From: Verrucomicrobiota bacterium
GTDB lineage: Bacteria > Verrucomicrobiota > Verrucomicrobiia > Limisphaerales > UBA8199
Assembly: GCA_026397855.1 (NCBI GenBank)
Contig: JAPLUA010000264.1
Coordinates: forward strand, 1 to 63,701
Direction: 5' to 3'
DNA length: 63,701 nt
Below the pieces are notes generated by a model. It was not told the DNA's origin. It saw only the letters and a list, made by a program, of their open reading frames with translations, and did not search any database. This document shows, piece by piece, positions 21,438-51,058 of the stretch; the stretch's first letter is position 1; each line of letters opens with the position of its first letter. The position numbers and the translations under genes are program-made.

Positions 21438-22127
21438 ATGCGACAAGAAAACTTTCGGCCAAAGCTAGACCTTCCCACCCGCCCGCCTGCGTATTCGGGG
21501 CCTCGGAAATCCCTCGGCCTTTTATCATTACTGTCCTTGCTCTTGCTCCTCACCCTCGTGACGGGGCTTTCCCAAACTGGCAATATGAACAACTCGACCA
21601 ACAACCTTGAGACCGCCACCCTTGGTGGCGGCTGTTTCTGGTGCACCGAAGCGATTTTTCAAATGCTGCCCGGCGTCAAGTCCGTGGTGAGCGGCTACGC
21701 GGGCGGAACCAGGGAGAATCCGACCTACAAGGAAGTCTGCTCCGGGGACACCGGTCACGCCGAGGTGATCCAGATCGCATACGATCCCGGGCTGGTCTCC
21801 TACGAGAAACTGCTGGAGACCTTTTGGGAAGCGCACGATCCGACCACCCTGAACCGGCAGGGGGGCGACACCGGGACCCAATACCGATCCATCATTCTCT
21901 ACGGCAACGAGGCCCAGAAGGCCGCCGCCGAAAAGTCAAAGGCCCGCGCGCAGAAGCATTTCGCCCAACCCATCGTGACGGAGATTGTGCCGCTGAAGAA
22001 GTTCTACCGGGGCGAGGACTACCACCAGGACTACTATCGCGGCAATCCCGGGCAGCCTTACTGCCGGGCGGTGATTCGTCCCAAGGTGGAGAAGTTCGAG
22101 CAGAAGCTCAAAGCCGCAGGGCATTGA
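21438..22127 (+). CDS. msrA: peptide-methionine (S)-S-oxide reductase MsrA with an export signal
   Basis: 'ATLGGGCFWCTEAIF', 'GHAEVIQIAYDP', 'YHQDYY'. ATG at 21438 gives a hydrophobic leader 'LGLLSLLSLLLLLTLV'. The ORF-track extension to 21195 overlaps the upstream gene. Confidence 0.9.
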   Translation: MRQENFRPKLDLPTRPPAYSGPRKSLGLLSLLSLLLLLTLVTGLSQTGNMNNSTNNLETATLGGGCFWCTEAIFQMLPGVKSVVSGYAGGTRENPTYKEVCSGDTGHAEVIQIAYDPGLVSYEKLLETFWEAHDPTTLNRQGGDTGTQYRSIILYGNEAQKAAAEKSKARAQKHFAQPIVTEIVPLKKFYRGEDYHQDYYRGNPGQPYCRAVIRPKVEKFEQKLKAAGH

Positions 22128-22169
22128 CTCGGCACAGCAGCCCGGCGCAATAAACTCCAGCGTGCCCGG

Positions 22170-22901
22170 TCAGCTTCGCGAGTGCCGCAGCCGGTGCGAG
22201 AGGACTGCCAGGCCTTCCGCCAGGTCCTCTTTTTGCACCACCACCCCATCGGGGATCTGCAGTTTCACGGGCGTGAAGTTCCAGATTCCCAGGATTCCGG
22301 CGCGGACCATCAGGTCGGCGGCCTCCTGCGCTGCTGCGACGGGCACGGTGAGCACGCCCAACGTGATGCCGAGCCGGCGAGCGAAGGGAGGAAGTTTGGG
22401 CATGGACTGCACGTGGCGGCCCTGGACCCAGGTCCCGATGAGTTTCGGGTCAGAATCAAAGGCCCCGGCAATCCTTAACCCCAGGTTCTCGAATCCGCGA
22501 TAGCCCAGCAGTGCTGTGCCAAGGTTGCCCACCCCAACCAACACAGCCTTGGTTTGATTGTTCCAGCCCAGGAAAGCCTCGATGGCGGCGATGAGTTCGG
22601 TGACGCGGAATCCGAGGCGCGGCGTGCCCGAGATGCCGGTCACCGCCAGGTCCTTGCGGACGATCACCGGCTCGAGATTGTGCGTGCTGGCCAGGACGGT
22701 GCCCGAGACGTGCTCGTGCCCCTCTCCCTGGAGCACGCGCAGGAGCTGCAGGTAGGCGGGCAGGCGCCGCACACACGCGGCCCCGGCCTTTTGGACCGCC
22801 TCGGGTGAGGGTGTGCCGGCTGGAGTGATCGCCCCCTGCAGGAGGGGATCTATGGCCTGGCTGCGCGGGCCCGCCTTGACGATTTGCGGTTTTGCTTTCA
22901 T
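22170..22901 (-). CDS. rex: redox-sensing transcriptional repressor Rex (paralog 1)
   Basis: wHTH 'RRLPAYLQLL...VIVRKDLA', Rossmann 'AVLVGVGNLGTALLGY', 'GILGIWNFTP'. Confidence 0.9.
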   Translation of the reverse strand: MKAKPQIVKAGPRSQAIDPLLQGAITPAGTPSPEAVQKAGAACVRRLPAYLQLLRVLQGEGHEHVSGTVLASTHNLEPVIVRKDLAVTGISGTPRLGFRVTELIAAIEAFLGWNNQTKAVLVGVGNLGTALLGYRGFENLGLRIAGAFDSDPKLIGTWVQGRHVQSMPKLPPFARRLGITLGVLTVPVAAAQEAADLMVRAGILGIWNFTPVKLQIPDGVVVQKEDLAEGLAVLSHRLRHSRS

Positions 22902-22967
22902 CAGATCATGGCGCCGCCGGCGTTGACAGCGCTTCTTGCTGTCGCTGGCGGCGGCGCGCTGGAAAGG

Positions 22968-22997
22968 ATATTACCCTGCTCAAACGGTGCATGACAA
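22968..22997 (-). promoter_or_regulatory. candidate promoter for rex paralog 1 (TTGTCA-N18-TAATAT on the minus strand)
   Basis: Minus-strand TTGTCA (plus 22992-22997) and TAATAT (plus 22968-22973), about 67 nt upstream of the ATG at 22901. Confidence 0.35.
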
Positions 22998-23104
22998 CCG
23001 GCGAATGAGGAATCAGCGGAGCAAAAGCATAAATTCTTTGGCGGCCTAACCTGTTTGGGTCAAGGCGCTTAGGCCCGCGGCCTTGCGAGGCGGCAAAATC
23101 CCCG

Positions 23105-23175
23105 TTGACAGGGTGACCCATTCGCGCTTTATATATCGATATATAGTTCTCGATAGATGTATAGCGATATGAGTG
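23105..23175 (+). promoter_or_regulatory. candidate rex2/hyd operon control region: TTGACA -35, AT-rich -10 zone, 14-bp perfect palindrome ATATATCGATATAT, three 14-bp-phased CGATA boxes
   Basis: TTGACA at 23105-23110. Palindrome at 23131-23144. (T)CGATA(T) recurs at about 23137, 23151 and 23165. A conspicuous AT island in a GC-rich genome. Confidence 0.45.
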
Positions 23176-23882
23176 TAACGAAGCAAATGGCGCCGGACAC
23201 GGCGAAGGCGGTGCCGGAGCCGACCCTGAAGCGCCTGCCGCTGTATCACCGCTTCCTCAAGGAGTGGCGGCAGGCCGGCAAAGAGTCGGTTTCCTGCACC
23301 GACATCGGCGAGGAGCTGAAGCTGGATCCGACGCAGGTGCGCAAGGACCTGGAGGCGGCGGGGATCAGCGGCCGGCCGCGCATCGGCTATGCCACCGCGG
23401 CGGTGGTGGATGGGATCGAGCTATTCCTGGGGTGGAAGAAGGTCAGCGAGGCGTTCCTGGTGGGGGCCGGGAGCATGGGCTCGGCGCTGCTGGGCTACCG
23501 CAAGTTCGAGGAGTGTGGCCTGAAGATCGTGGCGGCCTTTGACCGTGACCCGGGCAAGATCGGGCGGAAGATCCACGGCAAGCATGTGCTGGCGCTGGAT
23601 AAACTGGCCGACCTGACGCGGCGGATGCACATCCTGATCGGCATCATCACCGTTCCGGCGGCGGAGGCGCAGGCGGTGGCGGACGTGCTTGTGGCGGGCG
23701 GCGTGCGCGCCATCTGGAACTTTGCCCCGATACGGCTGCGGGTGCCCGAGCACCTCATCCTCCATAACGAAGACCTCTACTGTTCCCTGGCGTCCCTTTC
23801 GCAGAAGCTGGCCCAGGCGCTGGAGGCAAACCCGGCCGAGGCCGCGCCGGTTCGGAAAACACGAACGGCCACTTTCAATTAA
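23157..23882 (+). CDS. rex: redox-sensing transcriptional repressor Rex (paralog 2), first gene of the hyd operon
   Basis: 'LKRLPLYHRFL...TQVRKDLE', 'AFLVGAGSMGSALLGY', 'VRAIWNFAP'. Possible starts at 23157, 23169 and 23187. Only 27 nt separate it from hydC. Confidence 0.9.
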   Translation: MYSDMSVTKQMAPDTAKAVPEPTLKRLPLYHRFLKEWRQAGKESVSCTDIGEELKLDPTQVRKDLEAAGISGRPRIGYATAAVVDGIELFLGWKKVSEAFLVGAGSMGSALLGYRKFEECGLKIVAAFDRDPGKIGRKIHGKHVLALDKLADLTRRMHILIGIITVPAAEAQAVADVLVAGGVRAIWNFAPIRLRVPEHLILHNEDLYCSLASLSQKLAQALEANPAEAAPVRKTRTATFN

Positions 23883-23909
23883 CCACCCTTTAGAAACAGA
23901 GAATTACCT

Positions 23910-24437
23910 ATGACAGCCAAACGAAAGCCCGAAGGCACCGGCCGCAGATTTGTCAAAGTGTGCCATATACTGGACCAGCACAACCGCAACCCGGCGCGGC
24001 TGGTCCCCATCCTGCAGGCCGTGCAGGAGGAATACCGTTACCTGCCGCAGGAGGTGCTGACGTATGTCGCGACTGCGCTGGGCGTCTCGCCCGCGCGGGT
24101 CTATGGCGTGGCCACCTTCTACGCGCACTTCACCATCCTGCCGAAGGGCAAACATCTGGTCCGGCTGTGCGACGGCACGGCCTGCCACGTGAAGGAATCG
24201 GTGCCGATCCTGCGTGCGCTGCAAAAGCGGCTCGGAGTGGATGAGCAAAAGCGGCTCGGAGTGGATGACCGGCGCAAGACAACCGAGGACATGCTGTTCA
24301 CGGTGGAGACGGTCGCATGCCTGGGTGCCTGCGGCCTGGCGCCAGTCGTGGTGATAGACGACCAGGTTTACGGGCAACAGTCACCCGAAAGCGCGGTGAA
24401 GCTGGTGGAAGCCCTCATCACGCAGGAGGCCCAATGA
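23910..24437 (+). CDS. hydC: [FeFe]-hydrogenase HydC subunit (NuoE-like thioredoxin-fold [2Fe-2S] protein)
   Basis: 'ILQAVQEEYRYLP', 'GKHLVRLCDGTACH', 'ETVACLGACGLAPV'. Carries an in-frame 24-bp tandem duplication. Confidence 0.88.
   Translation: MTAKRKPEGTGRRFVKVCHILDQHNRNPARLVPILQAVQEEYRYLPQEVLTYVATALGVSPARVYGVATFYAHFTILPKGKHLVRLCDGTACHVKESVPILRALQKRLGVDEQKRLGVDDRRKTTEDMLFTVETVACLGACGLAPVVVIDDQVYGQQSPESAVKLVEALITQEAQ
24221..24268 (+). repeat. perfect 2 x 24-bp tandem duplication inside hydC (in frame; QKRLGVDE/QKRLGVDD)
   Basis: GCAAAAGCGGCTCGGAGTGGATGA at 24221-24244 is repeated exactly at 24245-24268. Confidence 0.95.
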
Positions 24438-26317
24438 GCGCACAAAGTCTGCCCCACCCGAACGGAAACAACGGCCACACGGCGCAACGGCGGGTCATCG
24501 TATGCGCGGGGACCGGCTGCGTGGCCAGCGGGGCCTACAAGGTTTTCCAGGCCTTGGTGGATCAAGTGCGGGCCGCCGGCCTCCCGGTCATAACCGAGTT
24601 CCGGCCGGAGCATGAAGCCGACGCGGTGCGCCTGAACAAGAGCGGCTGCCAGGGTTTCTGCCAGATGGGGCCGCTGGTGACGGTGCTGCCCGAGAACCTG
24701 CTGTATAACAAGGTCCGCGTTGAGGACGTGGCGGCGATTGTGGCTGAGACGCTGGTCGCCGGTCGGCTGGTCGAGCGGCTTCTCTATGTGGATTCGACCA
24801 CCAAGAAGCGTTGCCGGGGCGTGGAAGAGATTCCGTTTTACCAGCGCCAGCAGAGGTTTGTGCTCCGTTCCTGCGGCACCATTGATCCGGAGAGCATTGA
24901 CGAGTATGTGCACCAGGGCGGCTACGCGGCGGCGAAGAAGGCTTACGTGCAGATGACGCCGGAACAGATTTGCCAGGAGATCACCCGATCGGGCCTGCGC
25001 GGCCGGGGCGGCGGCGGTTTCCCCACGGGGCGCAAGTGGGAGGCGGCCCGGAGTCAGCCCGAGGGAAAGAAATATGTGATCTGCAACGCGGATGAGGGGG
25101 ATCCGGGCGCGTTCATGAACCGCAGTGTGATGGAAGGAAACCCTCACAGCGTGCTGGAAGGGCTGATGATTGCCGCGCGCGCGATTGGCGCGGACGAGAC
25201 GCTGATCTACGTCCGGACCGAGTACCCGCTGGCGGTGCAACGCATGCGCAGCGCGGTCAAGGACGCAGAGGCGCGCGGTTTCCTGGGCGACAACGCTTTC
25301 GGGACCGGCCGACCGCTGCGGTGCGAGGTGATGGAAGGCGCGGGGGCGTTTGTGTGCGGCGAGGAGACCGCGATGATCGCCTCCATCGAGGGGCAGCGCG
25401 GCATGCCGCGGCCTAAACCGCCTTTCCCGGCCCAGAGCGGCCTTTGGGGCAAGCCGACCATCATCAACAACGTCGAAACCCTGGCGCACGCGGTCCGCAT
25501 TGTCAACGAAGGCGCCGAGCAATTCCGGACACTGGGCACGGCGGCCTCTCCGGGCACAAAGACGTTCGCACTGACCGGCCACGTCGCCAACACCGGGCTG
25601 GTGGAAGTGCCTTTCGGGGCCACGCTGCGAGAGGTGGTATTCGATATTGGGGGCGGCATTACGGATCGCCGCGGCAAGGTGACCCGGGATGGCTTCAAGG
25701 CGGTGCAGATCGGCGGGCCGTCGGGCGGCTGCCTCACGCGCGACCACCTGGATCTGCCGCTCGATTACGATTCCCTGCGCGGGGCAGGGGCCATGGTTGG
25801 CTCCGGCGGGTTGGTGGCGATGAACAGCAAGACCTGCATGGTGTCCAGCGCCCGGTTCTTCATGGACTTCACCCAGCGGGAGAGCTGCGGCAAGTGCGTG
25901 CTGTGCCGCGAGGGCACGCGCCAGATGCTGGCGTTGCTCGACGACATCATCGAAGGGCGCGCCACCGCCGGGACGCTGGAGCTGCTGCAGAAGCTGGCGT
26001 CGGCCGTGCAGAAAGGCTCGCTCTGCGGGCTGGGCAAGACGGCCCCCAATCCGGTCCTTTCCACCCTGCGCCACTTCCGCGAGGAATACGATGCGCACGT
26101 GTTTCACAAGCACTGTCCCACCGGACAATGCAAGGCGCTGGCAAAGCCGAGCATTGACCCGGCCAAATGCAAGGGCTGCACCGCCTGCGCGAAGAAGTGC
26201 CCCGTCAATGCCATCACCGGCGAAAGGAAGCAGGCGCACACGATCAACCAGGCGCTCTGCATCAAGTGCGGTGTCTGTGTGGACACCTGCAAACTGGACG
26301 CGGTCATTGGCGTATAG
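24434..26317 (+). CDS. hydB: [FeFe]-hydrogenase HydB subunit (NuoF-like NADH/FMN/Fe-S flavoprotein)
   Basis: N-terminal 2Fe-2S 'VCAGTGC...CQGFCQMGP', 'GLRGRGGGGFPTGRKW', 'ESCGKCVLCREG', C-terminal 2x 'CxxCxxCxxxCP'. ATGA overlap with hydC. Confidence 0.92.
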   Translation: MSAQSLPHPNGNNGHTAQRRVIVCAGTGCVASGAYKVFQALVDQVRAAGLPVITEFRPEHEADAVRLNKSGCQGFCQMGPLVTVLPENLLYNKVRVEDVAAIVAETLVAGRLVERLLYVDSTTKKRCRGVEEIPFYQRQQRFVLRSCGTIDPESIDEYVHQGGYAAAKKAYVQMTPEQICQEITRSGLRGRGGGGFPTGRKWEAARSQPEGKKYVICNADEGDPGAFMNRSVMEGNPHSVLEGLMIAARAIGADETLIYVRTEYPLAVQRMRSAVKDAEARGFLGDNAFGTGRPLRCEVMEGAGAFVCGEETAMIASIEGQRGMPRPKPPFPAQSGLWGKPTIINNVETLAHAVRIVNEGAEQFRTLGTAASPGTKTFALTGHVANTGLVEVPFGATLREVVFDIGGGITDRRGKVTRDGFKAVQIGGPSGGCLTRDHLDLPLDYDSLRGAGAMVGSGGLVAMNSKTCMVSSARFFMDFTQRESCGKCVLCREGTRQMLALLDDIIEGRATAGTLELLQKLASAVQKGSLCGLGKTAPNPVLSTLRHFREEYDAHVFHKHCPTGQCKALAKPSIDPAKCKGCTACAKKCPVNAITGERKQAHTINQALCIKCGVCVDTCKLDAVIGV

Positions 26318-26335
26318 GCCGCCTGCCAACAGAGC

Positions 26336-28322
26336 ATGAAACCGACAGACATCAAACCATTTGAAGGCAATATGACTACCACTGTAGCTGCAAAGACATT
26401 GACCATTGACGGGCGCGAGGTGCCATTCAACGGCGAGCGCAACCTGCTGGAGCTGATTCGAAAAGCGGGCATTGACCTGCCGACCTTCTGCTATCATTCG
26501 GAGCTCAGCGTCTATGGGGCTTGCCGCCTCTGCCTGGTGGATATCCAGGGCCGCGGCATCCAGGGCGCCTGCTCGACGCCTCCTGAAGCCGGCCTGAAGG
26601 TGCGCACGCAGACGGAAGAGATTCGCGACATCCGGAAGATCACGATTGAGCTGCTCCTGGCCAACCATGACCAGCAGTGCCCGACCTGCCCGAAGAGCTC
26701 GGCCTGCCAGCTCCAGGATATTGCCCGCAAGCTGGGCATCCGCAAGGTCCGCTTCAAGCCCGTGCACCAGCCCGCGGAGCTGGACCTCTCGTCGGTTTCG
26801 CTGGTGCGCGGTCCGAACAAGTGTGTGCTATGTGGGGATTGCGTGCGCTTCTGCGAGGAGATCCAGGGCGTTGGCGCCATTGATTTCGCCCATCGGGGTC
26901 ACGAGGCGGCCGTGCTGCCCGCCTTTGGTAAAGGTTTGGGCGAGGGCGAGTGCATCAACTGCGGCCAATGCGCCGCGGTCTGTCCCACCGGTGCGCTGAC
27001 GCCGCGGCCCGAAGTGGACGAGGTCTGGCGCGCGCTCAACGACCCGGTCAAGACCGTGGTAGCCCAGCTCGCCCCGGCGGTGCGGGTGGCGATCGGCGAA
27101 GCCTTCGGCCTGGCCCCCGGCATGTCGGCCAGCGGCCAAATCGTGGCGGCGCTGAAGCGCCTCGGGTTTGACAAGGTTTACGACACCGCCTTCAGCGCCG
27201 ACCTGACGGTGGTTGAAGAGGCCAACGAGTTCCTGAAGCGGAAGGCCAAGGGCGAGAAGCTGCCGCAGTTCACCAGTTGCTGCCCGGGCTGGGTCAAGTT
27301 CGCCGAGCAGTATTTCCCCGAGCTGCTGCCAAACCTGTCGACATGCAAGTCGCCGCAGCAGATGCTCGGGGCGCTGTGCAAGGCCACCCTGCCGGGCGAG
27401 ATGGGCATTCCGAGGGAGAACCTCGTCATGGTTTCCATCATGCCCTGCACCGCCAAGAAGTTCGAGGCCAAGCGGCCCGAAGTTCCGCTTCAAGGAACTC
27501 GAACCCGAGTCCTTCGATATGCCGCTCGGCTTCAAGACCGGCGCCGGGGTCATCTTCGGCAACTCGGGAGGCGTAAGCGAAGCGGTCCTGCGATATGCCG
27601 CCGAATCGGTCACCAAGCGGAAGCTGGAGAACCCGGATTTCCACGCGGTGCGCGGCGAGGACGGGATCCGCCTGGCCACGGTCGCCCTGGACGGGGTGCA
27701 ACTCAAGCTGGCCGTGGTGCATGGATTGAAGAATGCCCGCACGCTGGCGGAGAAAGTGCGCCGGGGCGAATGCGAGCTGGACCTCATCGAGGTAATGGCT
27801 TGCCCGGGCGGTTGCATTGGCGGCGCCGGCCAGCCGGTGTCGCGCGAACGCGATATCAAGCGCTTGCGCACCCGGGGCCTGTATGAAGCCGACAAGCATC
27901 TGGACCTGCATAAGTCCCAGGAAAACCATCACGTGACAGAGATGTACCAGACCTATCTGGGCGAAATCGGCGGGCGCAAGGCCCATCACCTCCTGCACAC
28001 CCACTATCAGAACCGGCGGCGCATCGCAGATGAGCGGCTCGTGTTCGGCGACGGGCCTGACGGGGAGAAGCTCAAGGTCAGCGTGTGCGCGGGCACCAAC
28101 TGCTTCCTGAAAGGCTCGCAGGAGGTAATCCGCGACGTGCTCCAATGCGTCGAAGCCCAGGAACTGCAAGACCAGGTCGAAGTGAGCGCTTCGTTCTGCT
28201 TCGAGAAATGCGACCAGGGCCCGACCGTCCGGGTGGACGGCCAGCAAATCCAGCACTGCACTGGCCAGAAGGCGTGCGCCGCAATGCGCGAGCGCCTGAA
28301 GGCCAAACTCGCGCCCGAGTGA
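26336..28322 (+). pseudogene. hydA: [FeFe]-hydrogenase catalytic subunit HydA, interrupted by an out-of-frame internal deletion near 27480
   Basis: N-terminal Fe-S domains plus P1 'FTSCCPGW' and P2 'IMPCTAKKFEA' read in frame A until 'AKRPE'. 'FKELEPESFDMPLGFKTGAGVIFG...' and P3 'IEVMACPGGCIGGAGQP', plus a C-terminal 2Fe-2S domain, continue in another frame (ORF 27519-28322). Confidence 0.85.
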
Positions 28323-28347
28323 GCGCGCCACGGAGAGACATCCTTTT

Positions 28348-29757
28348 ATGAAAACGACACGTTCCAACCAACAGGCCACCTTCATTGACGAAGCCAAGAT
28401 CGCCGCGACGCTCGCCTCGGCGCGGGCCTGCGATGCCAGCCAGGTCCGTGAGATCCTGGCCAAGGCGCGCGAAATGAAGGGCCTGGCCGCCTCCGACATG
28501 GCGACGCTGATGGAGAACAACGACCCCGGGTTGTTGGAGGAGATGTATGCCACGGCCCGGCATGTGAAGGACGAGATTTACGGCAACCGCCTGGTGCTGT
28601 TCGCCCCGCTCTATATCTCGAACCTGTGCCACAACGAGTGCCTTTACTGTGCGTTCCGCGCGCGCAACAAAGAGCTGCTCAGGCGCACGCTAACCCCGGA
28701 GGAGATCGCGAATGAGACGAGCATTCTCATCGAGCAGGGGCATAAGCGCGTGCTGCTGGTCTCGGGTGAAAGCTATCCGGAGGAAGGCTTTGATTATGTC
28801 CTCAAGGCGATCGAGACGGTTTACAGTACCCGCAGCGGGCGCGGGGAAATCCGCCGCATCAACGCGAACGTGGCGCCGCTGAGCGTCGAGGACTATAAGC
28901 GGCTCAAGGCGGCGAAGATCGGGACATACCAGTGCTTCCAGGAGACCTATCACCGTGGGACTTACGCCGCCGTGCATGTCGCCGGGACGAAGCGGGACTT
29001 CGACTGGCGGGTGACCTGCTTTGACCGCGCGATGCAGGCGGGCATTGATGACGTGGGGATCGGGGTGCTGTTTGGGCTTTACGACTGGAAGTACGAAGTG
29101 CTCGCGATGAAGCAGGAGATTGAGCACCTCGAAGGCGCTTTCGGCGTGGGGCCGCACACCATCAGCGTGCCCAGGATCGAGCCGGCGGTCGGTTCGACCC
29201 TGGCTTACGCGCCGGCTCATCCGGTCTCGGACGGCGACTTCAAGAAGATCGTGGCACTGCTGCGCCTGGCGGTGCCCTACACCGGCATCATTATGTCCAC
29301 GCGGGAAAACGCTGCCACGCGCCGGGCGACATTCGAGCTGGGTGTTTCCCAGATCTCGGCTGGCAGCCGTTGCGACCCGGGCGGCTACGCCGCATCGGCC
29401 GACGGGCACAACTCGGAGCAGTTCCAGTTGGGGGATCACCGCTCGCTGGACGAGGTGGTGCGCGACGTGGCGGCGCTCGGCTATACGCCTTCGTTTTGCA
29501 CGGCGTGCTATCGGCTGGGGCGCACTGGGGCCGATTTCATGGACCTGGCCAAACCCGGCCTGATCAAACATCACTGCGCGCCCAATGCGCTGTCGAGCTG
29601 CATGGAATACCTGCTGGACTACGCGAAGCCGGAGACGCGCAAGGTGGGCGAAAGCCTGGTCGCGCGTGAGCTGGAGACGATGGAGCCCTCGGTGCAGGAG
29701 ATTGGCCGGCGCCTGGTGACGGAGGTGCAGGAGGACAAACGGGATGTTTATGTATAA
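28348..29757 (+). CDS. hydG: [FeFe]-hydrogenase maturase HydG (radical SAM tyrosine lyase)
   Basis: 'LYISNLCHNECLYCAFRA' radical SAM motif and the C-terminal auxiliary-cluster motif 'CTACYRLGRTG...HHCAPNA'. GGAGAG SD upstream. Confidence 0.9.
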   Translation: MKTTRSNQQATFIDEAKIAATLASARACDASQVREILAKAREMKGLAASDMATLMENNDPGLLEEMYATARHVKDEIYGNRLVLFAPLYISNLCHNECLYCAFRARNKELLRRTLTPEEIANETSILIEQGHKRVLLVSGESYPEEGFDYVLKAIETVYSTRSGRGEIRRINANVAPLSVEDYKRLKAAKIGTYQCFQETYHRGTYAAVHVAGTKRDFDWRVTCFDRAMQAGIDDVGIGVLFGLYDWKYEVLAMKQEIEHLEGAFGVGPHTISVPRIEPAVGSTLAYAPAHPVSDGDFKKIVALLRLAVPYTGIIMSTRENAATRRATFELGVSQISAGSRCDPGGYAASADGHNSEQFQLGDHRSLDEVVRDVAALGYTPSFCTACYRLGRTGADFMDLAKPGLIKHHCAPNALSSCMEYLLDYAKPETRKVGESLVARELETMEPSVQEIGRRLVTEVQEDKRDVYV

Positions 29758-29776
29758 AGGCTGTGTTTAGGGACCC

Positions 29777-31285
29777 ATGAGCGCTTTTCGCACTGAATCC
29801 GATCTGTTGGGCGAGTTGCCGATCCCGGCGGCCGCCCTGCACGGCATTCATACGGCCCGCGCGCTGGACAACTTTCCGCTGGCGTTGCAGCCGGTGGCCC
29901 CGGGCCTGGTCCGGGCGTACGGGACGGTGAAGCTGGCCTGCGCCATGACCAACCGCGCGCTTGGGGCCTGGGCGGATGATGCTCCCAAGGCAGACGCGAT
30001 CGAGCGCGCCTGCCGCGAGCTGGGCGAAGGTTTGCTGGACCGGCAGCTGGGCGAAGGTTTGCTGGACCGGCACATCGTGGTGGACCGGTTGCAGGGCGGG
30101 GCAGGGACCAGCACGAACATGAACGTTAACGAGGTGCTGGCCAATCGTGCGCTGGAGCTGCTCGGCGAACCGCCGGGCACTTATGGCCGCGTATCTCCGC
30201 TGGAGGATATCAACCTGCATCAGTCCACCAACGACACCTACCCGACGGCTTTGCGGCTGGCCGCAATCGTTGCCTTGCGCGAGTTGGAGCGGCGCGTGGT
30301 GGCGCTGCAGGAAGCCTTCCAGGCCGCTGAAAAACGCTTCGCGCATGTCGTCAAGGTCGGCCGGACCCAATTGCAGGACGCCGTGCTGACGACCCTGGGA
30401 CGTGAGATGGGGGCGTATGCCGAGGCGATGAACCGTGACCGCTGGCGGATCTACAAATGCGAGGAGCGTCTGCGGGTCGTCAATCTTGGGGGCACCGCCA
30501 TCGGCACCGGGCTGGCGGCGCCGCGCCAGTTCATCTTCCGGGTGACCGATACGCTGCGTGAGCTTGCCGGGATTGGTTTTGCCCGCGCGGAGAACCTCGT
30601 GGACGCCACGCAGAATGCGGACGTGTTCGTGGAGGTGTCCGGCATCCTGAAAGCGCACGCCGTTTCCCTGCTGAAGATCTGCGGCGACCTGCGGCTGATG
30701 GCTTCGGGGCCGGAAGCCGGGCTGCGCGAGATCCGCCTGCCCGCCCGCCAGGCCGGCTCGTCCATCATGCCGGGCAAGGTGAACCCGGTCATCCCCGAGG
30801 CAGTCAGCCAGGTGGCCATGCTGGTGATGGGCCACGACGCGACCATCGCCTCCGCCTGCGCCGCCGGCAGCCTGGAGCTGAATCCGTTTCTGCCCCTGGT
30901 GGCCGCTTGCCTGCTGGAAAGCCTGGAACTGTTGGGCCGGGCCGACGACATTCTCTGCCGCCATTGCGTTTCGGGTCTGGAAGCCGACGAGGCACGCTGC
31001 CGCCAGCATGTGCTCAACTCGACCGCCGCGGCGACGGCGTTGCTGCCGGCGCTTGGCTATGACCGGGTTTGCGAATTGGCGCGGTCGAGCGCTGAGACCG
31101 GCCGCACCGTCCGCGAGCTTGCGATCACGAATGGCTGGCTCTCGGCCGCGGCGTTCGATGAGCTGATCAGCCCTGAAGCCGTTTGCCGGCTTGGCACGCC
31201 GGACCTGCCGCACCCCGATCCCGACACGGGGCGCGCGGACGCACGCGCCAAGGCCGACGACTGCAAACAGGAGGCGAAGCCATGA
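29777..31285 (+). CDS. aspartate ammonia-lyase-like class II fumarate-lyase-family enzyme embedded in the hyd maturase operon
   Basis: 'FRTESDLLGELPIP', 'QGGAGTSTNMNVNEV', 'TQLQDAV', signature 'GSSIMPGKVNP'. ATGA overlap with hydF. Contains an in-frame 27-bp duplication. Confidence 0.85.
   Translation: MSAFRTESDLLGELPIPAAALHGIHTARALDNFPLALQPVAPGLVRAYGTVKLACAMTNRALGAWADDAPKADAIERACRELGEGLLDRQLGEGLLDRHIVVDRLQGGAGTSTNMNVNEVLANRALELLGEPPGTYGRVSPLEDINLHQSTNDTYPTALRLAAIVALRELERRVVALQEAFQAAEKRFAHVVKVGRTQLQDAVLTTLGREMGAYAEAMNRDRWRIYKCEERLRVVNLGGTAIGTGLAAPRQFIFRVTDTLRELAGIGFARAENLVDATQNADVFVEVSGILKAHAVSLLKICGDLRLMASGPEAGLREIRLPARQAGSSIMPGKVNPVIPEAVSQVAMLVMGHDATIASACAAGSLELNPFLPLVAACLLESLELLGRADDILCRHCVSGLEADEARCRQHVLNSTAAATALLPALGYDRVCELARSSAETGRTVRELAITNGWLSAAAFDELISPEAVCRLGTPDLPHPDPDTGRADARAKADDCKQEAKP
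30019..30072 (+). repeat. perfect 2 x 27-bp tandem duplication inside the aspA-like gene (in frame; LGEGLLDRQ/LGEGLLDRH)
   Basis: GCTGGGCGAAGGTTTGCTGGACCGGCA at 30019-30045 is repeated exactly at 30046-30072. Confidence 0.95.
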
Positions 31286-32577
31286 CAGCTCCCGCGCCCA
31301 AGGGCCTGCGGCTGCATATTGCGCTTTTTGGAAGGCGCAACGTGGGTAAGTCCAGCATGCTCAATGCGGTAACGCATCAGCAGCTCTCGATTGTCTCGCC
31401 CATTGCCGGCACGACCACCGACCCGGTAGAAAAGCCGATGGAACTGCTGCCTCTGGGGCCCGTCCTCTTTGTGGATACCGCTGGGGTAGACGATGCGGGG
31501 ACGTTGGGTGAGCTGCGGGTGCAGAAGACGCGCCAGGTGCTGGACCGGGCCGACTTGGGGGTGGTCGTGGCGGAAGCAGGCCAATGGGGCGAGTTCGAAG
31601 AGCAGCTTCTGGTCGAGCTCGCGGGCCGGAAGATTCCTGCGATCGTCGTGTTCAATAAGGCGGATGCTGCCGAGCCGGATCCTCTGCTGTGGGAGCAGTT
31701 GGGGCAACGGCAACTGCGCCGCGTGCGCGTCAGCGCGCTCCAGCACACCGGCATCGCGGAGTTCCGGCAAGCGCTGCTCGAAGCCGCGCCCGCGGATTTC
31801 ATTGATCATCCTGCCATCCTCGGCGATCTGGTCGGCCCGGGCGAAATGGCGGTGCTGGTGGTGCCGATTGACAAGGAGGCGCCGCGCGGTCGGTTGATAC
31901 TGCCCCAGGTGCAGGCTATTCGAGACCTGCTGGACAACGATGCCTTTTGCCTGGTCGTGAAGGAGCGCGAGCTGCGCAGCGCGCTGGATCGGCTTAAGAG
32001 CCCTCCCCGGCTCGTCGTGACCGATTCACAGGCCTTCTTGAAGGTCGCCGCCGACACTCCGCGCGAGGTGCCGTTGACCAGCTTTTCGATCCTGATGTCG
32101 CGCTTCAAAGGGGATTTGACGGTACAGGTGCAGGGTGCGCTGGCCATTGAGAATCTGCGTGGCGGGGACCGCGTCCTGATCGCGGAAGCCTGCTCGCACC
32201 ATCCGATTGGCGAGGACATTGGCAGGGTGAAGATCCCCCGCTGGCTGACCCAGTTTGTGGGGGGACAGCTCCATTTCGAGCATGTGCAGGGGCATGATTT
32301 TCCAGCGGACCTCTCGCCGTATCGCCTGGTGGTGCATTGCGGGGCCTGCATGTGGAATCGCCGCGAAATGCTCGGCCGGATCCTGCGCTGCCAGCAAGCT
32401 GGCGTGCCTGTGACCAACTACGGTCTGGCCATCGCCTACAGCCTGGGCATCTTCGAGCGGGCGCTGGAGCCGTTTCCGGCGGCGCTGGAGCTCTGGCGCA
32501 ACGCCGCGCGAAACCCCGCAGCCCGGATGCCGGCACCCGCTTCAGCACCCCGGGAAAGGAGCGCGTGTTCTGCATGA
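31282..32577 (+). CDS. hydF: [FeFe]-hydrogenase maturase HydF (GTPase scaffold)
   Basis: 'IALFGRRNVGKSSMLNA', 'DTAG', 'NKAD', C-terminal 'CSHHP...HCGACM' cluster motif. Confidence 0.9.
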   Translation: MTAPAPKGLRLHIALFGRRNVGKSSMLNAVTHQQLSIVSPIAGTTTDPVEKPMELLPLGPVLFVDTAGVDDAGTLGELRVQKTRQVLDRADLGVVVAEAGQWGEFEEQLLVELAGRKIPAIVVFNKADAAEPDPLLWEQLGQRQLRRVRVSALQHTGIAEFRQALLEAAPADFIDHPAILGDLVGPGEMAVLVVPIDKEAPRGRLILPQVQAIRDLLDNDAFCLVVKERELRSALDRLKSPPRLVVTDSQAFLKVAADTPREVPLTSFSILMSRFKGDLTVQVQGALAIENLRGGDRVLIAEACSHHPIGEDIGRVKIPRWLTQFVGGQLHFEHVQGHDFPADLSPYRLVVHCGACMWNRREMLGRILRCQQAGVPVTNYGLAIAYSLGIFERALEPFPAALELWRNAARNPAARMPAPASAPRERSACSA

Positions 32578-33647
32578 ACGCGCCGCTCACGCTCACAGAC
32601 ATCCTGGCCTGGCTCCGGGAGGACGATCCGGCGCGGCTCAAGACGCTTTGGGCCCGAGCTGATGAGACCCGCCGCCTGAACGTGGGCGACACCATCCATT
32701 TGCGAGGGCTGGTTGAGATTTCGAGCTGGTGCGTCCGCCAGTGCGCCTACTGTGGGCTGAGGGTGGACAACCAATCGCTGACCCGCTACCGGATGGAGCC
32801 GGGAGAGATCCTGGAGTCGGCGCGCCAGGCAGTGGCGTTTGGCTATGGCACGGTCGTGCTTCAGGCCGGCGAAGATTTCGGCCTGACCTGCGAATGGGTT
32901 GCCGACGTGGTCAGGCAAATCAAGAACGAGACGCCGCTGGCTGTCACTCTAAGCCTGGGTGAGCGGACCGAAGCCGAACTGGACGCCTGGCGCAAGGCCG
33001 GGGCGGATCGCTACCTCCTGCGCTTCGAAACCTCGGACCAGGCCCTGTTCGAGCTGATTCACCCGCGCCGGAACCCGGATGCCGCGGGCCGCATCCCCTT
33101 GCTCCGCCAGCTTAAGCAACTCGGTTACGAGGTCGGCAGCGGGATAATGGTCGGCCTGCCGGGCCAGACTTACGAGAGCGTGGCCCGTGACATTGATCTA
33201 TTTCGCGAGCTGGACCTGGACATGATCGGCATCGGGCCGTTCATTCCGCATCCACAGACCCCGCTGGGCACCGGCGAACTGAAGCCCGTTATTGAGCCCG
33301 ACGAGCAGGTGCCCAACACCGAACTGATCGTGTATAAGGCAGTGGCCCTCACCCGCCTCGTGCGTCCGGACGCCAACATCCCCAGTACGACAGCCCTTGC
33401 CACCATCAACAAGCGCAATGGGCGGGAACTGGGGTTGCAGCGGGGCGCCAACGTGCTCATGCCCAATCTGACGCCGGCTAAATACCGGAAGCTTTACGAG
33501 ATCTACCCCGCCAAAGCCTGCATCGAGGAAACCGGAAGTGCCTGCAACGGCTGTCTCCGGATGCGGATAACCGCAATCGGACGCCAGATTGCCCAAGGCC
33601 CCGGCGGTAGGAAACGGCATGCGCAGGAAAGGGATGTGTTGTGTTAG
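32574..33647 (+). CDS. hydE: [FeFe]-hydrogenase maturase HydE (radical SAM)
   Basis: 'VEISSWCVRQCAYCGLR'; BioB-like fold and length (357 aa). ATGA overlap with hydF. Confidence 0.88.
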   Translation: MNAPLTLTDILAWLREDDPARLKTLWARADETRRLNVGDTIHLRGLVEISSWCVRQCAYCGLRVDNQSLTRYRMEPGEILESARQAVAFGYGTVVLQAGEDFGLTCEWVADVVRQIKNETPLAVTLSLGERTEAELDAWRKAGADRYLLRFETSDQALFELIHPRRNPDAAGRIPLLRQLKQLGYEVGSGIMVGLPGQTYESVARDIDLFRELDLDMIGIGPFIPHPQTPLGTGELKPVIEPDEQVPNTELIVYKAVALTRLVRPDANIPSTTALATINKRNGRELGLQRGANVLMPNLTPAKYRKLYEIYPAKACIEETGSACNGCLRMRITAIGRQIAQGPGGRKRHAQERDVLC

Positions 33648-33658
33648 ACCGCGCGTTA

Positions 33659-33860
33659 CGAAATCCGAAGGCCGAAGCCCGAAATCCGAAGGAAGGCCGA
33701 AGCCCGAAATCCGAAAAGCGGCGTGTCAACGGGTCACCAAAGGGGCTGGCTGTCCAGGCGCTGATGGGAACTTTCGCAGCCTGCTACGAGTGTGGCGTGA
33801 GGGCTTCAGCCTTCGGATTTCGGCCTTCCTTCGGATTTCGGCATTCGGCATTCGGATTTA
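33659..33860. repeat. ~200-bp MITE-like element with ~45-bp terminal inverted repeats built from CCGAA/CGAAGCCC units
   Basis: 33661-33705 is the near-perfect reverse complement of 33815-33859 (about 3 mismatches). The arms are internally iterated (GAAATCCGAAGG...). Confidence 0.8.
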
Positions 33861-33869
33861 CCCCTCCCC

Positions 33870-34133
33870 ATGTCCCCTGAACCTCTCAACTCCATCATGA
33901 TCTGCATGGGCAGCTCGTGCTTTTCGCGCGGCAACAACCGGAACATTGAAGTGATCCAGGAGCACCTCGCGGCCCAGCCGCTCCCGGCGGGGGTTGAACT
34001 CACCGGCCACCTGTGCGAAGGCCACTGCAAGGCGGGTCCGAACGTCACGATCAACGGCAAGATGTATCACGAGGTGGACCCCATCGTCATCATCGGCCTG
34101 CTCAACCACTACAGCCAGCAACGAGAGGGATAA
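33870..34133 (+). CDS. small thioredoxin-like [2Fe-2S] ferredoxin
   Basis: 87 aa; 'ICMGSSCF' (Cx4C) and 'LCEGHCKAGPNV' (Cx3C), the same pattern as the NuoE-type domains in HydB/HydA. Confidence 0.8.
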   Translation: MSPEPLNSIMICMGSSCFSRGNNRNIEVIQEHLAAQPLPAGVELTGHLCEGHCKAGPNVTINGKMYHEVDPIVIIGLLNHYSQQREG

Positions 34134-34140
34134 ACTTCCT

Positions 34141-35930
34141 GTGAACTTCCTGAATCCCATCTACACGGAAAAGCGCGAATGCCAGGATTGCTACAAGTGC
34201 GTTCGGCATTGTCCCGTCAAAGCCATCAAGGTGGAGGGCGGTTACGCCTCGGTGGTTCCGGAGCTGTGCATCCTGTGCGGGCACTGTGTGGAGGTCTGTC
34301 CGAACTCGGCCAAGCGGGTGCGGGATGATCTGTCCCAGGCGCGGCAACTGCTCGCGCTCAAGCCGCGCGTGCTGGTATCGCTGGCCCCCTCTTATGTGAG
34401 CGAGTTTCCGGAACTGCAACCCGGCCAGCTCATTCGCGCCTTCAAACGGCTCGGCTTTTCCGGAGTTTCCGAGACCGCCCTGGGCGCCCAGCAGGTCTCC
34501 GCTCAGGCTGCCGCCGCCCTGGCGGAAGGCAGCGGGCGAGTGCTCTATTCCTCGGCCTGCCCGACGGTGGTGAGCTACCTGCAGAAGCATCGGCCCGCCG
34601 ACTCGCAATACCTCACCGGGCTGCTTTCGCCGTTGCTGACGCACTGCAAGATGCTGCGGCAGGGCTTCGGGCAGGACATCGGCATCGTGTTTGTCGGTCC
34701 GTGCATCGCCAAGAAGCTCGAAGCCGCCCAGCATCCGGCATTGCTGGATGTCGCGCTCACCTTCGACGACTTGCGCCGGTGGCTGACGCAGGAGCAGATC
34801 ATGCCGGAGACACTGGCGGCTGAGGCCGGGGATAGCTTCATCCCGGAGCACTCCGCTGAAGGCGCGTGGTATCCGGTGGACGGGGGCATGATCGCGGGAA
34901 TGAAATCCATCTGTGCGGTGAACGATTGCTCGTTCATGGCCTTCTCCGGCATCAACGCTATCCAGAAGGCGATCGAGGGGTTGGGCACCCAGCCGATGGA
35001 CGGAAGCCTGTTCCTGGAGTTGCTCGCGTGCGAGGGCGGCTGCGTGAACGGTCCGCGCGCCGCCAAACGGTATGGCACGGCCGCCAAGCGCCGCCGGGTG
35101 CTTCGGGCGGTGGTGGCGCCCCCGCCGATGCTCCCGCGCCAGTCCAGCCTGGACATCCAGTCCATATTCGCCGTAGCGCCCCAGCCGCTGCTCAAGTTTT
35201 CCGAGTCGCAGATCCGGGAAGCCCTGCGTGCGGTCGGCAAGATTTCACGGGATGACGAGCTGGACTGTGGCGGCTGCGGTTACAATTCGTGCCGCGAGTT
35301 TGCCGGGGCGCTCATCCAGCAAAAGGCGGAACGCGCCATGTGCGTCACCTACATGCGCAAGCTGGCGCTGAAGAAGGCGAACGCCCTCATTCAGAAGATG
35401 CCCTCGGCCGTCGTGATCATCAACGACGCGATGCGCATCATCGAATACAACACCGCCTTCGCCACCCTGTTCGCCTGCAACGTGGCGCCGGCGGGCTCAC
35501 CCCCGACGGGCGCGTCTCTGGAAGGGGTGATGCTGAGCGAGATCATGCCCTTCGCCAACCTCTTCCACGCCGTGCTGAAGAGCGGCGAGGACATCCTGGA
35601 TCGGGACCTCCGCTACCAGAAGACCATTCTGCACTCCGCTACCAGAAGACCATTCTGCATGCCGGTATTTTCACCATTGAAAAGCACTGCGTGGTGGGCG
35701 GCATCCTGCAGGACATCACGGAGCCGGCCGTCCGGAAGGCGGAGGTGATCCGCAAGGCGCAGGAGGTCATCCAGCGCAGCCTGCAGACCACGCAGACCAT
35801 CGCCTGCCTGCTGGGCGAGAGCGCCGCCGAAACCGAGATCACCCTCAACTCGATCATCGAATCCTTTTCGCCCGCCAAACTGGAGGAGCCCAAGCATGAG
35901 AACGATTGGCGAAAGCTTTATAGACGTTGA
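34141..35930 (+). pseudogene. hydS: HydS-type putative sensory [FeFe]-hydrogenase (Fd domain, H-domain, Cx2Cx4Cx16C, PAS), frameshifted by a 26-bp tandem duplication
   Basis: GTG at 34141 after a GAGAGGG SD. 'CQDCYKCVRHCP', 'CILCGHCVEVCP', 'SSACPTV', 'GPCIAKKLE', 'ELLACEGGCVNG', 'CGGCGYNSC-x16-C'. The frame switches at the duplication; ORF 35289-35930 carries the C-terminus '...LRYQKTILHAGIFTIEKH...DITEP'. Confidence 0.88.
35608..35659 (+). repeat. perfect 2 x 26-bp tandem duplication inside hydS (frameshifting)
   Basis: CTCCGCTACCAGAAGACCATTCTGCA at 35608-35633 is repeated exactly at 35634-35659. Deleting one copy fuses ORFs 33994-35748 and 35289-35930 in frame. Confidence 0.95.
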
Positions 35931-37077
35931 TTCCTCCCAGCGCGCCAAGGCCGGCCAGGTGGTCTCCGGTGACGTCTTCCTCTCGCGGCGCATCAAGCCC
36001 GAGGGGCGCATCATCTCCATCCTCTCGGACGGTCTGGGCAGCGGCGTCAAGGCCAGCGTGCTGGCGAACCTGACGGCCACGATGGCGCTGCGGTACACGT
36101 CGGCCTTTGTGGATGTCCGCAAGAGCGCGGGCACCATCATGGACACCCTGCCGATCTGCGAGGTCCGCAAAATCAGCTACTCCACGTTCACCATCGTTGA
36201 CCTGGATGAGCGGGGCCATGCCCGGGCGATTGAGCACGGCAACCCCGCCCTGGTGCTGATGCGCGGCCAGAGGGCGCTGCCGCTGGAGCGGGTGGACATC
36301 ACCCTGGATAATTGGAAGGATCGCACCATCAGCTACAGCGAGTTTGATGTCCAACTGGGCGACCGGATTGTCTGCGCCTCAGACGGCATCAGCCAATCGG
36401 GGTTGGGCCGCAAGGGCCTGCCGCTCGGCTGGGGCAGCGAGAACTTCGTCCGCTTCCTGTCGCAGCAGGTAGGGCAGGAGCCGGAAATCTCTTCGCAGGA
36501 ACTCTCCCGGAAGGTCGTCGCCGAGGCCCTGGTGAACGACGGCGCCGCCGCCAAGGACGACATGACCTGCGGCGTGGTTTACTACCGTCACCCGCGCCGG
36601 CTCCTGGTCATCACCGGGCCGCCCTTCTGCAAGGAGCGCGATGGCGAATTGGCGGAGATGGCGGAGTCGTTTCCCGGGAGCAAAGCCATCTGCGGCGGCA
36701 CCACCGCCAATATCATCTCGCGCCTGCTCAACCGGCCGGTTCGCGCCTGTCTGGCCAAACTCGATCCGGAGATACCCCCGCCGGCCTTAATGCAGGGCAT
36801 TGACCTGATCACCGAAGGGACCATGACCCTCGCGCGCGTCGCGGAAATGCTGGAGCGCGGCGCGCAGCAACCGTGGCCCGACAACGCGGCCCGCGACCTG
36901 CTGGCCCTGATGCTCCGGAGCGATGTCGTCGAGTTTGTGGTCGGCACGCGCATCAATGAGGCTCACCAGGACCCGAATGTGCCGGTTGAGCTCGACCTGC
37001 GCCGCAATATCATCCGCCGCATCGTCGGGCTGCTGGAGAGCAAACACCTCAAGGAGTGTTCCGTCCGGTTCCTCTGA
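35896..37077 (+). CDS. SpoIIE/PP2C-family Ser/Thr phosphatase with a ~160-aa C-terminal domain of unknown function
   Basis: 'SGDVF', 'ILSDGLGSGVKASV', 'GDRIVCASDGIS', 'KDDMTCGVV' PPM motifs. GGAGG SD 8 nt upstream. Overlaps the hydS 3' end by 35 nt. Confidence 0.85.
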   Translation: MRTIGESFIDVDSSQRAKAGQVVSGDVFLSRRIKPEGRIISILSDGLGSGVKASVLANLTATMALRYTSAFVDVRKSAGTIMDTLPICEVRKISYSTFTIVDLDERGHARAIEHGNPALVLMRGQRALPLERVDITLDNWKDRTISYSEFDVQLGDRIVCASDGISQSGLGRKGLPLGWGSENFVRFLSQQVGQEPEISSQELSRKVVAEALVNDGAAAKDDMTCGVVYYRHPRRLLVITGPPFCKERDGELAEMAESFPGSKAICGGTTANIISRLLNRPVRACLAKLDPEIPPPALMQGIDLITEGTMTLARVAEMLERGAQQPWPDNAARDLLALMLRSDVVEFVVGTRINEAHQDPNVPVELDLRRNIIRRIVGLLESKHLKECSVRFL

Positions 37078-37110
37078 GCTCGCGAGCCAATCCCACCGCC
37101 CATAAAACGA

Positions 37111-37278
37111 GCCTCCTCTCCCCGGCCCTCTCCTCCATTCTGAATGGAAGAGAGGGAGAAGAAGCGTGCCGTGCTTGTGTGGTTGACCTCCGGACCGCCA
37201 CCCGCCACGCGGACGAGGACGCGCCCATCTTTCTCCCTCTCCCCTTCAGAAGGGGAGAGGGCCGGGGAGAGGGGTCCC
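37111..37278. repeat. two inverted copies of a ~45-bp 'CTCTCCCCGGCCCTCTCC...GGGGAGAGGG' hairpin repeat
   Basis: Copy 1 at about 37113-37157 with hairpin 37126-37156. Copy 2 at about 37235-37278, inverted, with a 12-bp perfect stem CCCTCTCCCCTT/AAGGGGAGAGGG. The 18-nt core is shared. Confidence 0.8.
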
Positions 37279-37292
37279 CCGGTCTCGTCAGC

Positions 37293-37327
37293 AAAATAAA
37301 ACGGCGGCCCGCTGCCGGACCGCCGTT
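37293..37327 (-). terminator. rho-independent terminator of gap
   Basis: Minus strand reads AACGGCGG-tccggcagcggg-CCGCCGTT followed by TTATTTTG, about 27 nt after the gap stop. Confidence 0.8.
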
Positions 37328-37353
37328 CCCAACCAACCAACTCAACCAACAGA

Positions 37354-38406
<1,053 letters not shown>

Positions 38407-51012: not shown

Positions 51013-51058
51013 GAAAATCGAACTGTGCGATCCATCGGGGGACGGTGAGCTGCCTAAT

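Follow-up and report, generated by a model that had tools for sequence, protein, structure and literature searches.

The lyase gene and its operon

The stretch of DNA analysed here (the window: 63,701 nucleotides (nt), contig JAPLUA010000264.1 of assembly GCA_026397855.1, from an uncultured Verrucomicrobiota bacterium) carries an operon for an [FeFe] hydrogenase and its maturases HydG, HydF and HydE. Between hydG and hydF lies a gene for an aspartate-ammonia-lyase-like protein of a hyd-linked subfamily, for which we use the name AspL. This gene (29777..31285; plus strand, like all genes given below unless stated otherwise) encodes 502 amino acids (aa). The stop codon of hydG ends at 29757 and the ATG of the lyase gene is located at 29777; the intergenic gap is therefore 19 nt. 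At the other end the stop codon of the lyase gene overlaps the start codon of hydF in an ATGA (31282..31285), with a GGAGG 8 nt upstream of it, and the junction between hydF and hydE shows the same type of overlap (ATGA, 32574..32577).

An earlier note on this DNA, made from the letters alone, had pointed out the open reading frame (ORF) with its GSSIMPGKVNP motif, its start 19 nt after hydG and the two overlaps, and all of these are confirmed in the sequence. The note had also read the tight coupling as a sign of stoichiometric co-expression with the maturases. Although the 4-nt overlap is real here, that part was an over-reading, because the overlap between the lyase gene and hydF is confined to this lineage; in 36 related loci the gap between the two genes lies between -6 and +458 nt (median about 30).

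The catalytic serine loop (SS loop) of AspL has the form GSSIMPGKVNP (aa 327-337; 30755..30787), and the signature that characterizes the subfamily, RDRWRIYKCEERLR, is found at aa 220-233 (30434..30475), within one long helix (aa 207-231) of the AlphaFold (AF2) model. A perfect tandem duplication of 27 nt (30018..30072), identified with Tandem Repeats Finder (TRF), adds nine residues (LGEGLLDRQ) to the protein. The duplication is private to the window, and neither the 97%-identical sibling (L001) nor a homolog of 493 aa (P0001) has it; the AF2 model has a low predicted local distance difference test score (pLDDT) at aa 86-94, the region of the nine-residue insert just before the T111 loop. The nearest named homologs returned by the homology search come from metagenome-assembled genomes (MAGs) of Verrucomicrobiia and Limisphaerales. 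Three long minus-strand ORFs over or near the lyase gene (29564-31213, 31057-31809 and 28690-29574) have no Pfam match, and we treated them as artefacts of a high GC content.

The lyase gene is part of a closely packed series of plus-strand genes with the order Rex, hydC, hydB, hydA, hydG, AspL, hydF, hydE. The three maturases each score above the cut-off of their NCBIfam equivalog model: HydG, a radical S-adenosylmethionine (SAM) maturase (28348..29757; TIGR03955, 517 bits versus a cut-off of 312), the GTPase scaffold maturase HydF (31282..32577; TIGR03918, 556 versus 326, together with the domains HydF_dimer, HydF_tetramer and MMR_HSR1) and the radical SAM maturase HydE (32574..33647; TIGR03956, 308 bits versus 255). 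The operon opens with a hydC-like gene for a thioredoxin-like [2Fe-2S] subunit (23910..24437; Pfam 2Fe-2S_thioredx, E 9e-47), followed by hydB, which encodes the NuoF-like flavoprotein subunit of a bifurcating-type [FeFe] hydrogenase (24434..26317; Pfam Complex1_51K and NADH_4Fe-4S, and tblastn against relatives), and by hydA for the catalytic subunit (26336..28322), which is frame-broken and split over two ORFs that each carry half of the Fe_hyd_lg_C domain.

A gene for a Rex-type redox-sensing regulator (23157..23882; Pfam Put_DNA-bind_N and CoA_binding) is located directly upstream of the operon, a position that is kept in relatives, and a second Rex-type regulator gene lies near the operon start on the minus strand (22170..22901). 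A search of the whole window for the Rex operator TTGTGAA-N4-TTCACAA, allowing at most three mismatches, and for a variant with an N6 spacer returned no site. A scan of 22000-37500 for promoters and terminators gave matches that were no commoner than in shuffled sequences. Inside the operon the only match on the operon strand was one weak terminator-like sequence in hydA, which fits a single transcript and is not evidence for one. We scanned the large ORFs of the window and found among them no gcvH, gcvT, glyA, sdaA or ilvA, no second aspA or fumC and no other ammonia-lyase gene. Two more radical SAM genes, one of them with a B12-binding domain, are present downstream of the hyd locus at a distance of some 15 kb (48413-49450, plus strand, and 49540-51216, minus strand).

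Linkage to the maturase genes and a distinct subfamily

The AspL genes are linked to hyd genes beyond chance, and they follow the maturases, above all hydF, rather than the structural hydrogenase. The earlier note had suggested that co-occurrence be looked for across genomes, and it is indeed observed there. From a semi-random sample of AspA/FumC loci the best 80 of those listed were kept, and linkage was called by tblastn of the Hyd proteins of the window against the sampled loci. All eight loci at which the lyase was at least 50% identical to AspL carried hyd maturase genes, and these belong to Pirellulales, Armatimonadia, Chitinispirillaceae, Planctomycetaceae, Thermoguttaceae, Solidesulfovibrio, a deltaproteobacterium and Omnitrophota. 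At an identity of 48% or less a single locus of 72 was linked, namely L056 from the Bacteroidales (40% identity), and the other AspA/FumC loci gave 0 of 71. Three homologs were looked up individually: that of the 97%-identical sibling, one from a MAG that carries the label Bacillota and one from a MAG of the Planctomycetota. All three likewise showed the order hydG-lyase-hydF(-hydE). When the relatives with at least 50% identity are pooled, 12 of 12 adjoin hyd maturase genes.

As an independent test the subfamily signature was back-translated and used as a pattern to scan metagenome contigs. Every one of the 80 loci returned encodes an AspL homolog (46-78% identity), and in 71 of them a hyd gene was found on the fetched stretch. 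When only loci with at least 1.5 kb on both flanks are considered, 27 of 29 are hyd-linked, against 1/72 for the other AspA/FumC loci (Fisher p = 4e-21). hydF is the immediate downstream neighbour, on the same strand, in 36 of the 48 metagenome loci with enough downstream sequence, and hydG directly precedes the lyase gene in 26 of the 48. The commonest gene order in the metagenomes is hydG-lyase-hydF-hydE, identical to that of the window, and lyase-hydF pairs stand alone in L006, in L056 and in ten metagenome loci, some of the ten on short contigs.

Locus L056 (9995-12630; Bacteroidales UBA5537) is unusual in several respects. Its lyase is very divergent, with GRT changed to AYT and GTG to GTS, and it adjoins a HydF-like ORF that comprises the dimerisation and tetramerisation domains only and has no GTPase domain. 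The other neighbours are unrelated to hydrogenases.

The linked copies also stand apart in their own sequences. In a neighbour-joining tree they form one clade (bootstrap 0.64, or 0.66 when L056 is included), which falls on the AspA side and is distinct both from the housekeeping aspartases that the same phyla possess and from the FumC-like outgroup. Derived residues common to the clade are RDRWRxxKCEER (aa 220-231), a His148 just before QSTND, and Leu372, which takes the place of a Glu present in 64 of 66 housekeeping aspartases; the signature region is invariant among the hyd-linked copies and variable in housekeeping AspA and FumC. The earlier note had asked for a phylogeny that would tell such copies from housekeeping AspA and FumC, and tree and shared residues together do separate them. 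On these characters the hyd-linked aspartases are a distinct subfamily, which can be recognised by a motif and is separate from housekeeping AspA. Locus L013 carries a partial signature, together with a canonical AVP motif and unrelated neighbours, and we consider it to fall just outside the linked clade.

The pairwise divergence of AspL correlates most closely with that of HydF (r = 0.94, versus 0.75 for HydE and 0.65 for HydG), a co-divergence that is suggestive and not independent of shared ancestry. The comparison with the sibling contig gives a ratio of non-synonymous to synonymous substitution rates (dN/dS) of 0.064 for the lyase gene, which indicates strong purifying selection.

Two cysteines are specific to the clade and are replaced by Ala in the housekeeping enzymes: C228 (nt 30458-30460) occurs in all 20 sequences and C55 (nt 29939-29941) in 15 of the 20. 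A new metal or Fe-S site was considered and found to be unsupported, as C228 is the only clade-wide cysteine and the others of the near relatives, apart from C55 with its 15 of 20, are lost in deeper members.

Predicted activity and proposed role

AspL has the domains of its superfamily (Pfam Lyase_1, PF00206, E 1.8e-72, aa 13-352; FumaraseC_C, PF10415, E 4.7e-14, aa 419-469) and exceeds the cut-off of the NCBIfam subfamily model 'aspartate ammonia-lyase' (NF008909; 597 bits versus 510), while it scores 423 bits on NF011092, which has a cut-off of 876. The AF2 model (pLDDT 74.7) has the three-domain, mainly helical fold of the class II fumarase/aspartase superfamily. The closest solved structures are aspartases, those of Brucella (3OCE), Bacillus (AspB, 1J3U/3R6Q) and E. 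coli (AspA, 1JSW), with class II fumarases next; template-modelling (TM) scores are 0.81/0.88 against aspartase 3r6q and about 0.77-0.82 against fumarases. The first conserved region reads GGAGTS, which is the aspartase form, and not GSGTQS as in FumC. Among the columns that are invariant in the superfamily, 73 of 81 are kept in the hyd-linked clade.

The AspB residues T101, S140, T141, N142, T187, S318, S319, M321, K324 and N326 correspond to T111, S150, T151, N152, T197, S328, S329, M331, K334 and N336 of AspL, and all of them are conserved; these positions are reported to be the L-aspartate-binding and catalytic residues of AspB (Fibriansah et al. 2011). The position of AspB H188 is occupied by Q198, and E. 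coli AspA has Gln there too. From these sequence features the gene is predicted to encode a working aspartate ammonia-lyase, and the same activity may be expected of the subfamily.

At aa 140-143 (nt 30194-30205), preceding the QSTND region, the H-P-N-D of the AspA and FumC sequences inspected has become S-P-L-E/D in most hyd-linked copies. We take H-P-N-D to be part of the second dicarboxylate site ('B' site) of FumC, and the change hints at a loss of allosteric behaviour in the hyd-linked copies.

The role that we propose is that of a nitrogen donor for the H-cluster, as the earlier note had already supposed. AspL would convert L-aspartate into fumarate and NH4+. Its gene would share a transcript with hydC-hydB-hydA-hydG and hydF-hydE and, in this lineage, be translationally coupled to hydF. 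The job of the enzyme would be to free ammonium from aspartate during the synthesis of the maturases. The glycine-cleavage T-protein, with methylene-tetrahydrofolate (derived from serine via serine hydroxymethyltransferase), would then load the ammonium as an aminomethyl group on the lipoyl-H-protein, and from this group HydF would build the dithiomethylamine bridge. The linkage and the separate clade support an aspartase as nitrogen donor for the bridge, and so does an in vitro result: in a defined maturation, E. coli AspA with 15N-aspartate led to 15N in the dithiomethylamine bridge (PMC11736057). That aspartate plus an aspartase can replace ammonium in defined HydE/F/G maturation, which the earlier note had proposed to test with the enzyme of the window, has already been published for the housekeeping AspA of E. 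coli (PMC11736057), and the hypothesis itself is in the literature. We consider it fairly probable that AspL is an ammonium supplier for bridge synthesis, a role in vivo that we infer from its genomic setting.

Several points weigh against this role. Free ammonium is normally plentiful in cells, so that it is not evident why a dedicated source would be needed, and HydEFG alone suffice for the maturation of HydA in E. coli. Three signature-bearing lyases (L116, L129 and L151) lie on long contigs whose sequence is free of hyd genes for several kb around them. The genes nearby have no common theme and include GFO/IDH/MocA (sugar) oxidoreductases, a cyanophycin-synthetase-like gene, a sulfatase and an ACT-domain protein. 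Many organisms that bear a hydrogenase have no hyd-linked aspartase (PMC11736057). The published maturation assay was done with E. coli AspA, which is only about 42% identical to AspL (Foldseek, 1jsw), and our literature search found no report of an assay of any enzyme of the hyd-linked subfamily. Residues that are near-invariant in housekeeping AspA are changed in AspL (E372L, P204L, Q209R, F211M, N303G and E362A); the loss of E372 is common to the hyd-linked group, and that of P204, Q209 and F211 to its near clade. On the aspA equivalog model TIGR00839 the protein reaches 457 bits and stays below the cut-off of 681; since it does pass that of NF008909, it is best described as aspartase-type but not a textbook AspA. 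Finally, the hyd system as encoded in the window may be non-working, because hydA is frame-broken and the nine-residue insertion sits beside the T111 loop of AspL.

The last point concerns a series of small indels in the locus. The break in hydA at about 27482 is a deletion of some 77 nt: when the DNA is compared by hand, 84 nt of the related locus L003 (28 codons, FIKDGVADVDYVLTTQELARMIEEAGLK) correspond to 7 nt here, and tblastn with the intact HydA of L003 leaves residues 381-400 unaligned and changes frame. On the sibling contig HydA is intact (675 aa). An in-frame duplication of 24 nt in hydC (24221-24268; TRF), again private to the window, makes the protein 175 aa long here versus 167 aa in the sibling. 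Downstream of hydE we find a 55-nt inverted repeat (33661..33859; arms 33661-33715 and 33805-33859, from the repeat search), a small thioredoxin-like ferredoxin ORF, a gene for a HydS-like sensory [FeFe] hydrogenase homolog (34141..35930, start approximate; Pfam Fe_hyd_lg_C and FeS) and a gene for a SpoIIE/PP2C phosphatase (35896..37077; Pfam SpoIIE), the usual partner of a sensory hydrogenase, which has the same place in the gene order of the sibling. The HydS-like gene is frameshifted by a 26-nt tandem duplication (35608-35659; TRF), and the sibling gene is intact (587 aa).

The arms of the inverted repeat are 85% complementary, with a spacer of 89 nt, and are built of short repeats of the CCGAAG/CGGATTT type. 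About 135 nt that follow hydE here, including the left arm, are extra in comparison with sibling L001, which has the right arm only. The repeat may mark the end of the operon, act as a terminator, or be an inserted, small mobile or hairpin element. In total, tandem duplications of 22-27 nt with two perfect copies occur at five places in the 64-kb window (24221-24268, 30018-30072, 33667-33715, 35608-35659 and 58348-58391), four of them within the 12-kb hyd locus. These four are absent from relatives, as judged by gene or protein length for hydC, the lyase gene and hydS and by sequence for the 25-nt one.

Such indels could mean that the locus is decaying or mis-assembled in this genome, with the lyase a relic here whatever its role elsewhere. 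The hydA deletion, the HydS frameshift and the in-frame duplications in hydC and the lyase gene, which are absent from close relatives where comparable, would be in line with this. Faulty gap closing would, however, also be expected to leave perfect two-copy duplications of 22-27 nt and a clean deletion, and hydG, hydF, hydE and the lyase gene are otherwise full-length and under strong purifying selection when compared with the sibling. Because the same genes are under such selection, the indels should be either very recent lesions, with slippage as the cause of the duplications, or errors of assembly and gap closing, and we think a relic very unlikely. That an ordinary aspartase gene landed in the operon by chance and has been hitch-hiking neutrally, with no tie to maturation, might be suggested by the hyd clusters that have no lyase and by the signature-bearing copies that are unlinked. 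Yet the linkage is kept over at least six phyla and many rearrangements of gene order, the linked copies form their own clade instead of grouping with the housekeeping enzymes found in their phyla, and the dN/dS cited above does not suit a passenger, all of which makes this explanation highly improbable. An explanation from metabolism starts from the bifurcating-type hydABC genes with which the operon opens, beside a Rex regulator gene: the aspartase would feed aspartate carbon to fermentation or to a fumarate electron sink and be co-regulated with H2 production for redox balance. Metabolic coupling was proposed for Pelobacter carbinolicus in 2012 (PMC3543383), and fumarate as an electron acceptor has been discussed (PMC11736057). 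It is weakened because the lyase tracks hydF, and hydG, rather than hydA or hydB; AspL-HydF pairs occur with no structural hydrogenase nearby (L006, L056, L009), the divergence of AspL correlates best with that of HydF, and no fumarate reductase or dicarboxylate transporter was seen among the large window ORFs scanned. We therefore hold it to be unlikely.

The closeness to HydF, both in adjacency and in co-divergence, might also be taken as a sign of a partnership that goes beyond bulk ammonium, in which AspL docks on HydF or on the T- or H-protein via a basic helix face specific to the subfamily and passes ammonia on locally, or in which ammonium acts as a monovalent-cation activator of the HydF GTPase. 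[quoted passage not shown] On the other hand, no AspL-HydF fusion protein was found among the 120 best homologs, the unrelated E. coli AspA is enough in vitro, and shared inheritance alone can explain the co-divergence, so that we rate such a partnership as rather unlikely. A more far-reaching version, to which we give a minor but real chance, would have the AspL enzymes as a separate orthologous group, inherited and exchanged with hydF across phyla, its helix face docking HydF or the T/H-protein, and ammonia handed over locally or gated by redox state via Cys55 and Cys228. If true, AspL would be a true fourth maturation factor, a question that the published E. coli AspA experiment leaves aside. 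The supply of ammonium for the bridge remains the role that we prefer.

Comparison with known enzymes and published loci

The class II fumarase FumC shares with AspL the superfamily, the GSSIMPGKVNP loop and the tetrameric fold. It differs in that AspL scores 384 bits on the fumC model, against a cut-off of 665, and that FumC-like loci form a separate outgroup. The best structural match is AspB of Bacillus sp. YM55-1 (1J3U; 3R6V with L-aspartate), which is 43% identical; E362 of AspB is replaced by Leu and its H188 by Gln in AspL, and AspB is a housekeeping, catabolic enzyme that, unlike AspL, has no hyd context. E. coli AspA (1JSW) resembles AspL in its fold, the SS loop and the Gln at the position of AspB His188, and the two align over their full length (E 3.9e-103). 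Apart from the identity of only ~42% it differs in belonging to the housekeeping clade and in lacking RDRWRxxKCEER and H148. It also keeps E365, P197, Q202, F204 and N296, all of which are replaced in the hyd-linked clade, and its gene has dcuA and the small RNA gene aspX as neighbours and not hyd genes.

The arrangement itself, and its explanation by an ammonium donor, are already known and were published between 2012 and 2024. An aspartate ammonia-lyase gene between hydG and hydF was described in Pelobacter carbinolicus (2012, Aklujkar; PMC3543383), where the order hydG-aspA-hydF is identical to that of the window, and the same arrangement was reported for Sulfurospirillum cavolei in a paper that also mentions D. 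vulgaris (2016; PMC4794192). Pagnier et al. (JBC 2024; PMC11736057) saw a strong association of aspA with hydF and found an ammonia-lyase gene within 20 ORFs of 79% of authentic hydF genes, with aspA as the lyase that is typically nearest. Their aspA genes were defined by Pfam membership and not split from housekeeping copies, and the words phylogeny, clade and paralog are absent from that paper. By 2025 AspA had been drawn in the maturation scheme of a PNAS paper (PMC12501116).

[quoted passage not shown] Since that clue was noticed in 2012 and 2016 and exploited in 2024, the window provides a further example and not a discovery. The published hyd-embedded aspartases are of the same family as AspL, have the same position by hydF and hydG and have been given the same role in providing ammonium for the bridge; what distinguishes AspL from them is its uncultured Verrucomicrobiota host, the private duplication of nine residues and the broken hydA in its locus. 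The analysis adds to the published picture, as a modest increment, that the linked copies make up a separate subfamily, which co-diverges with HydF and can be identified by a short motif.

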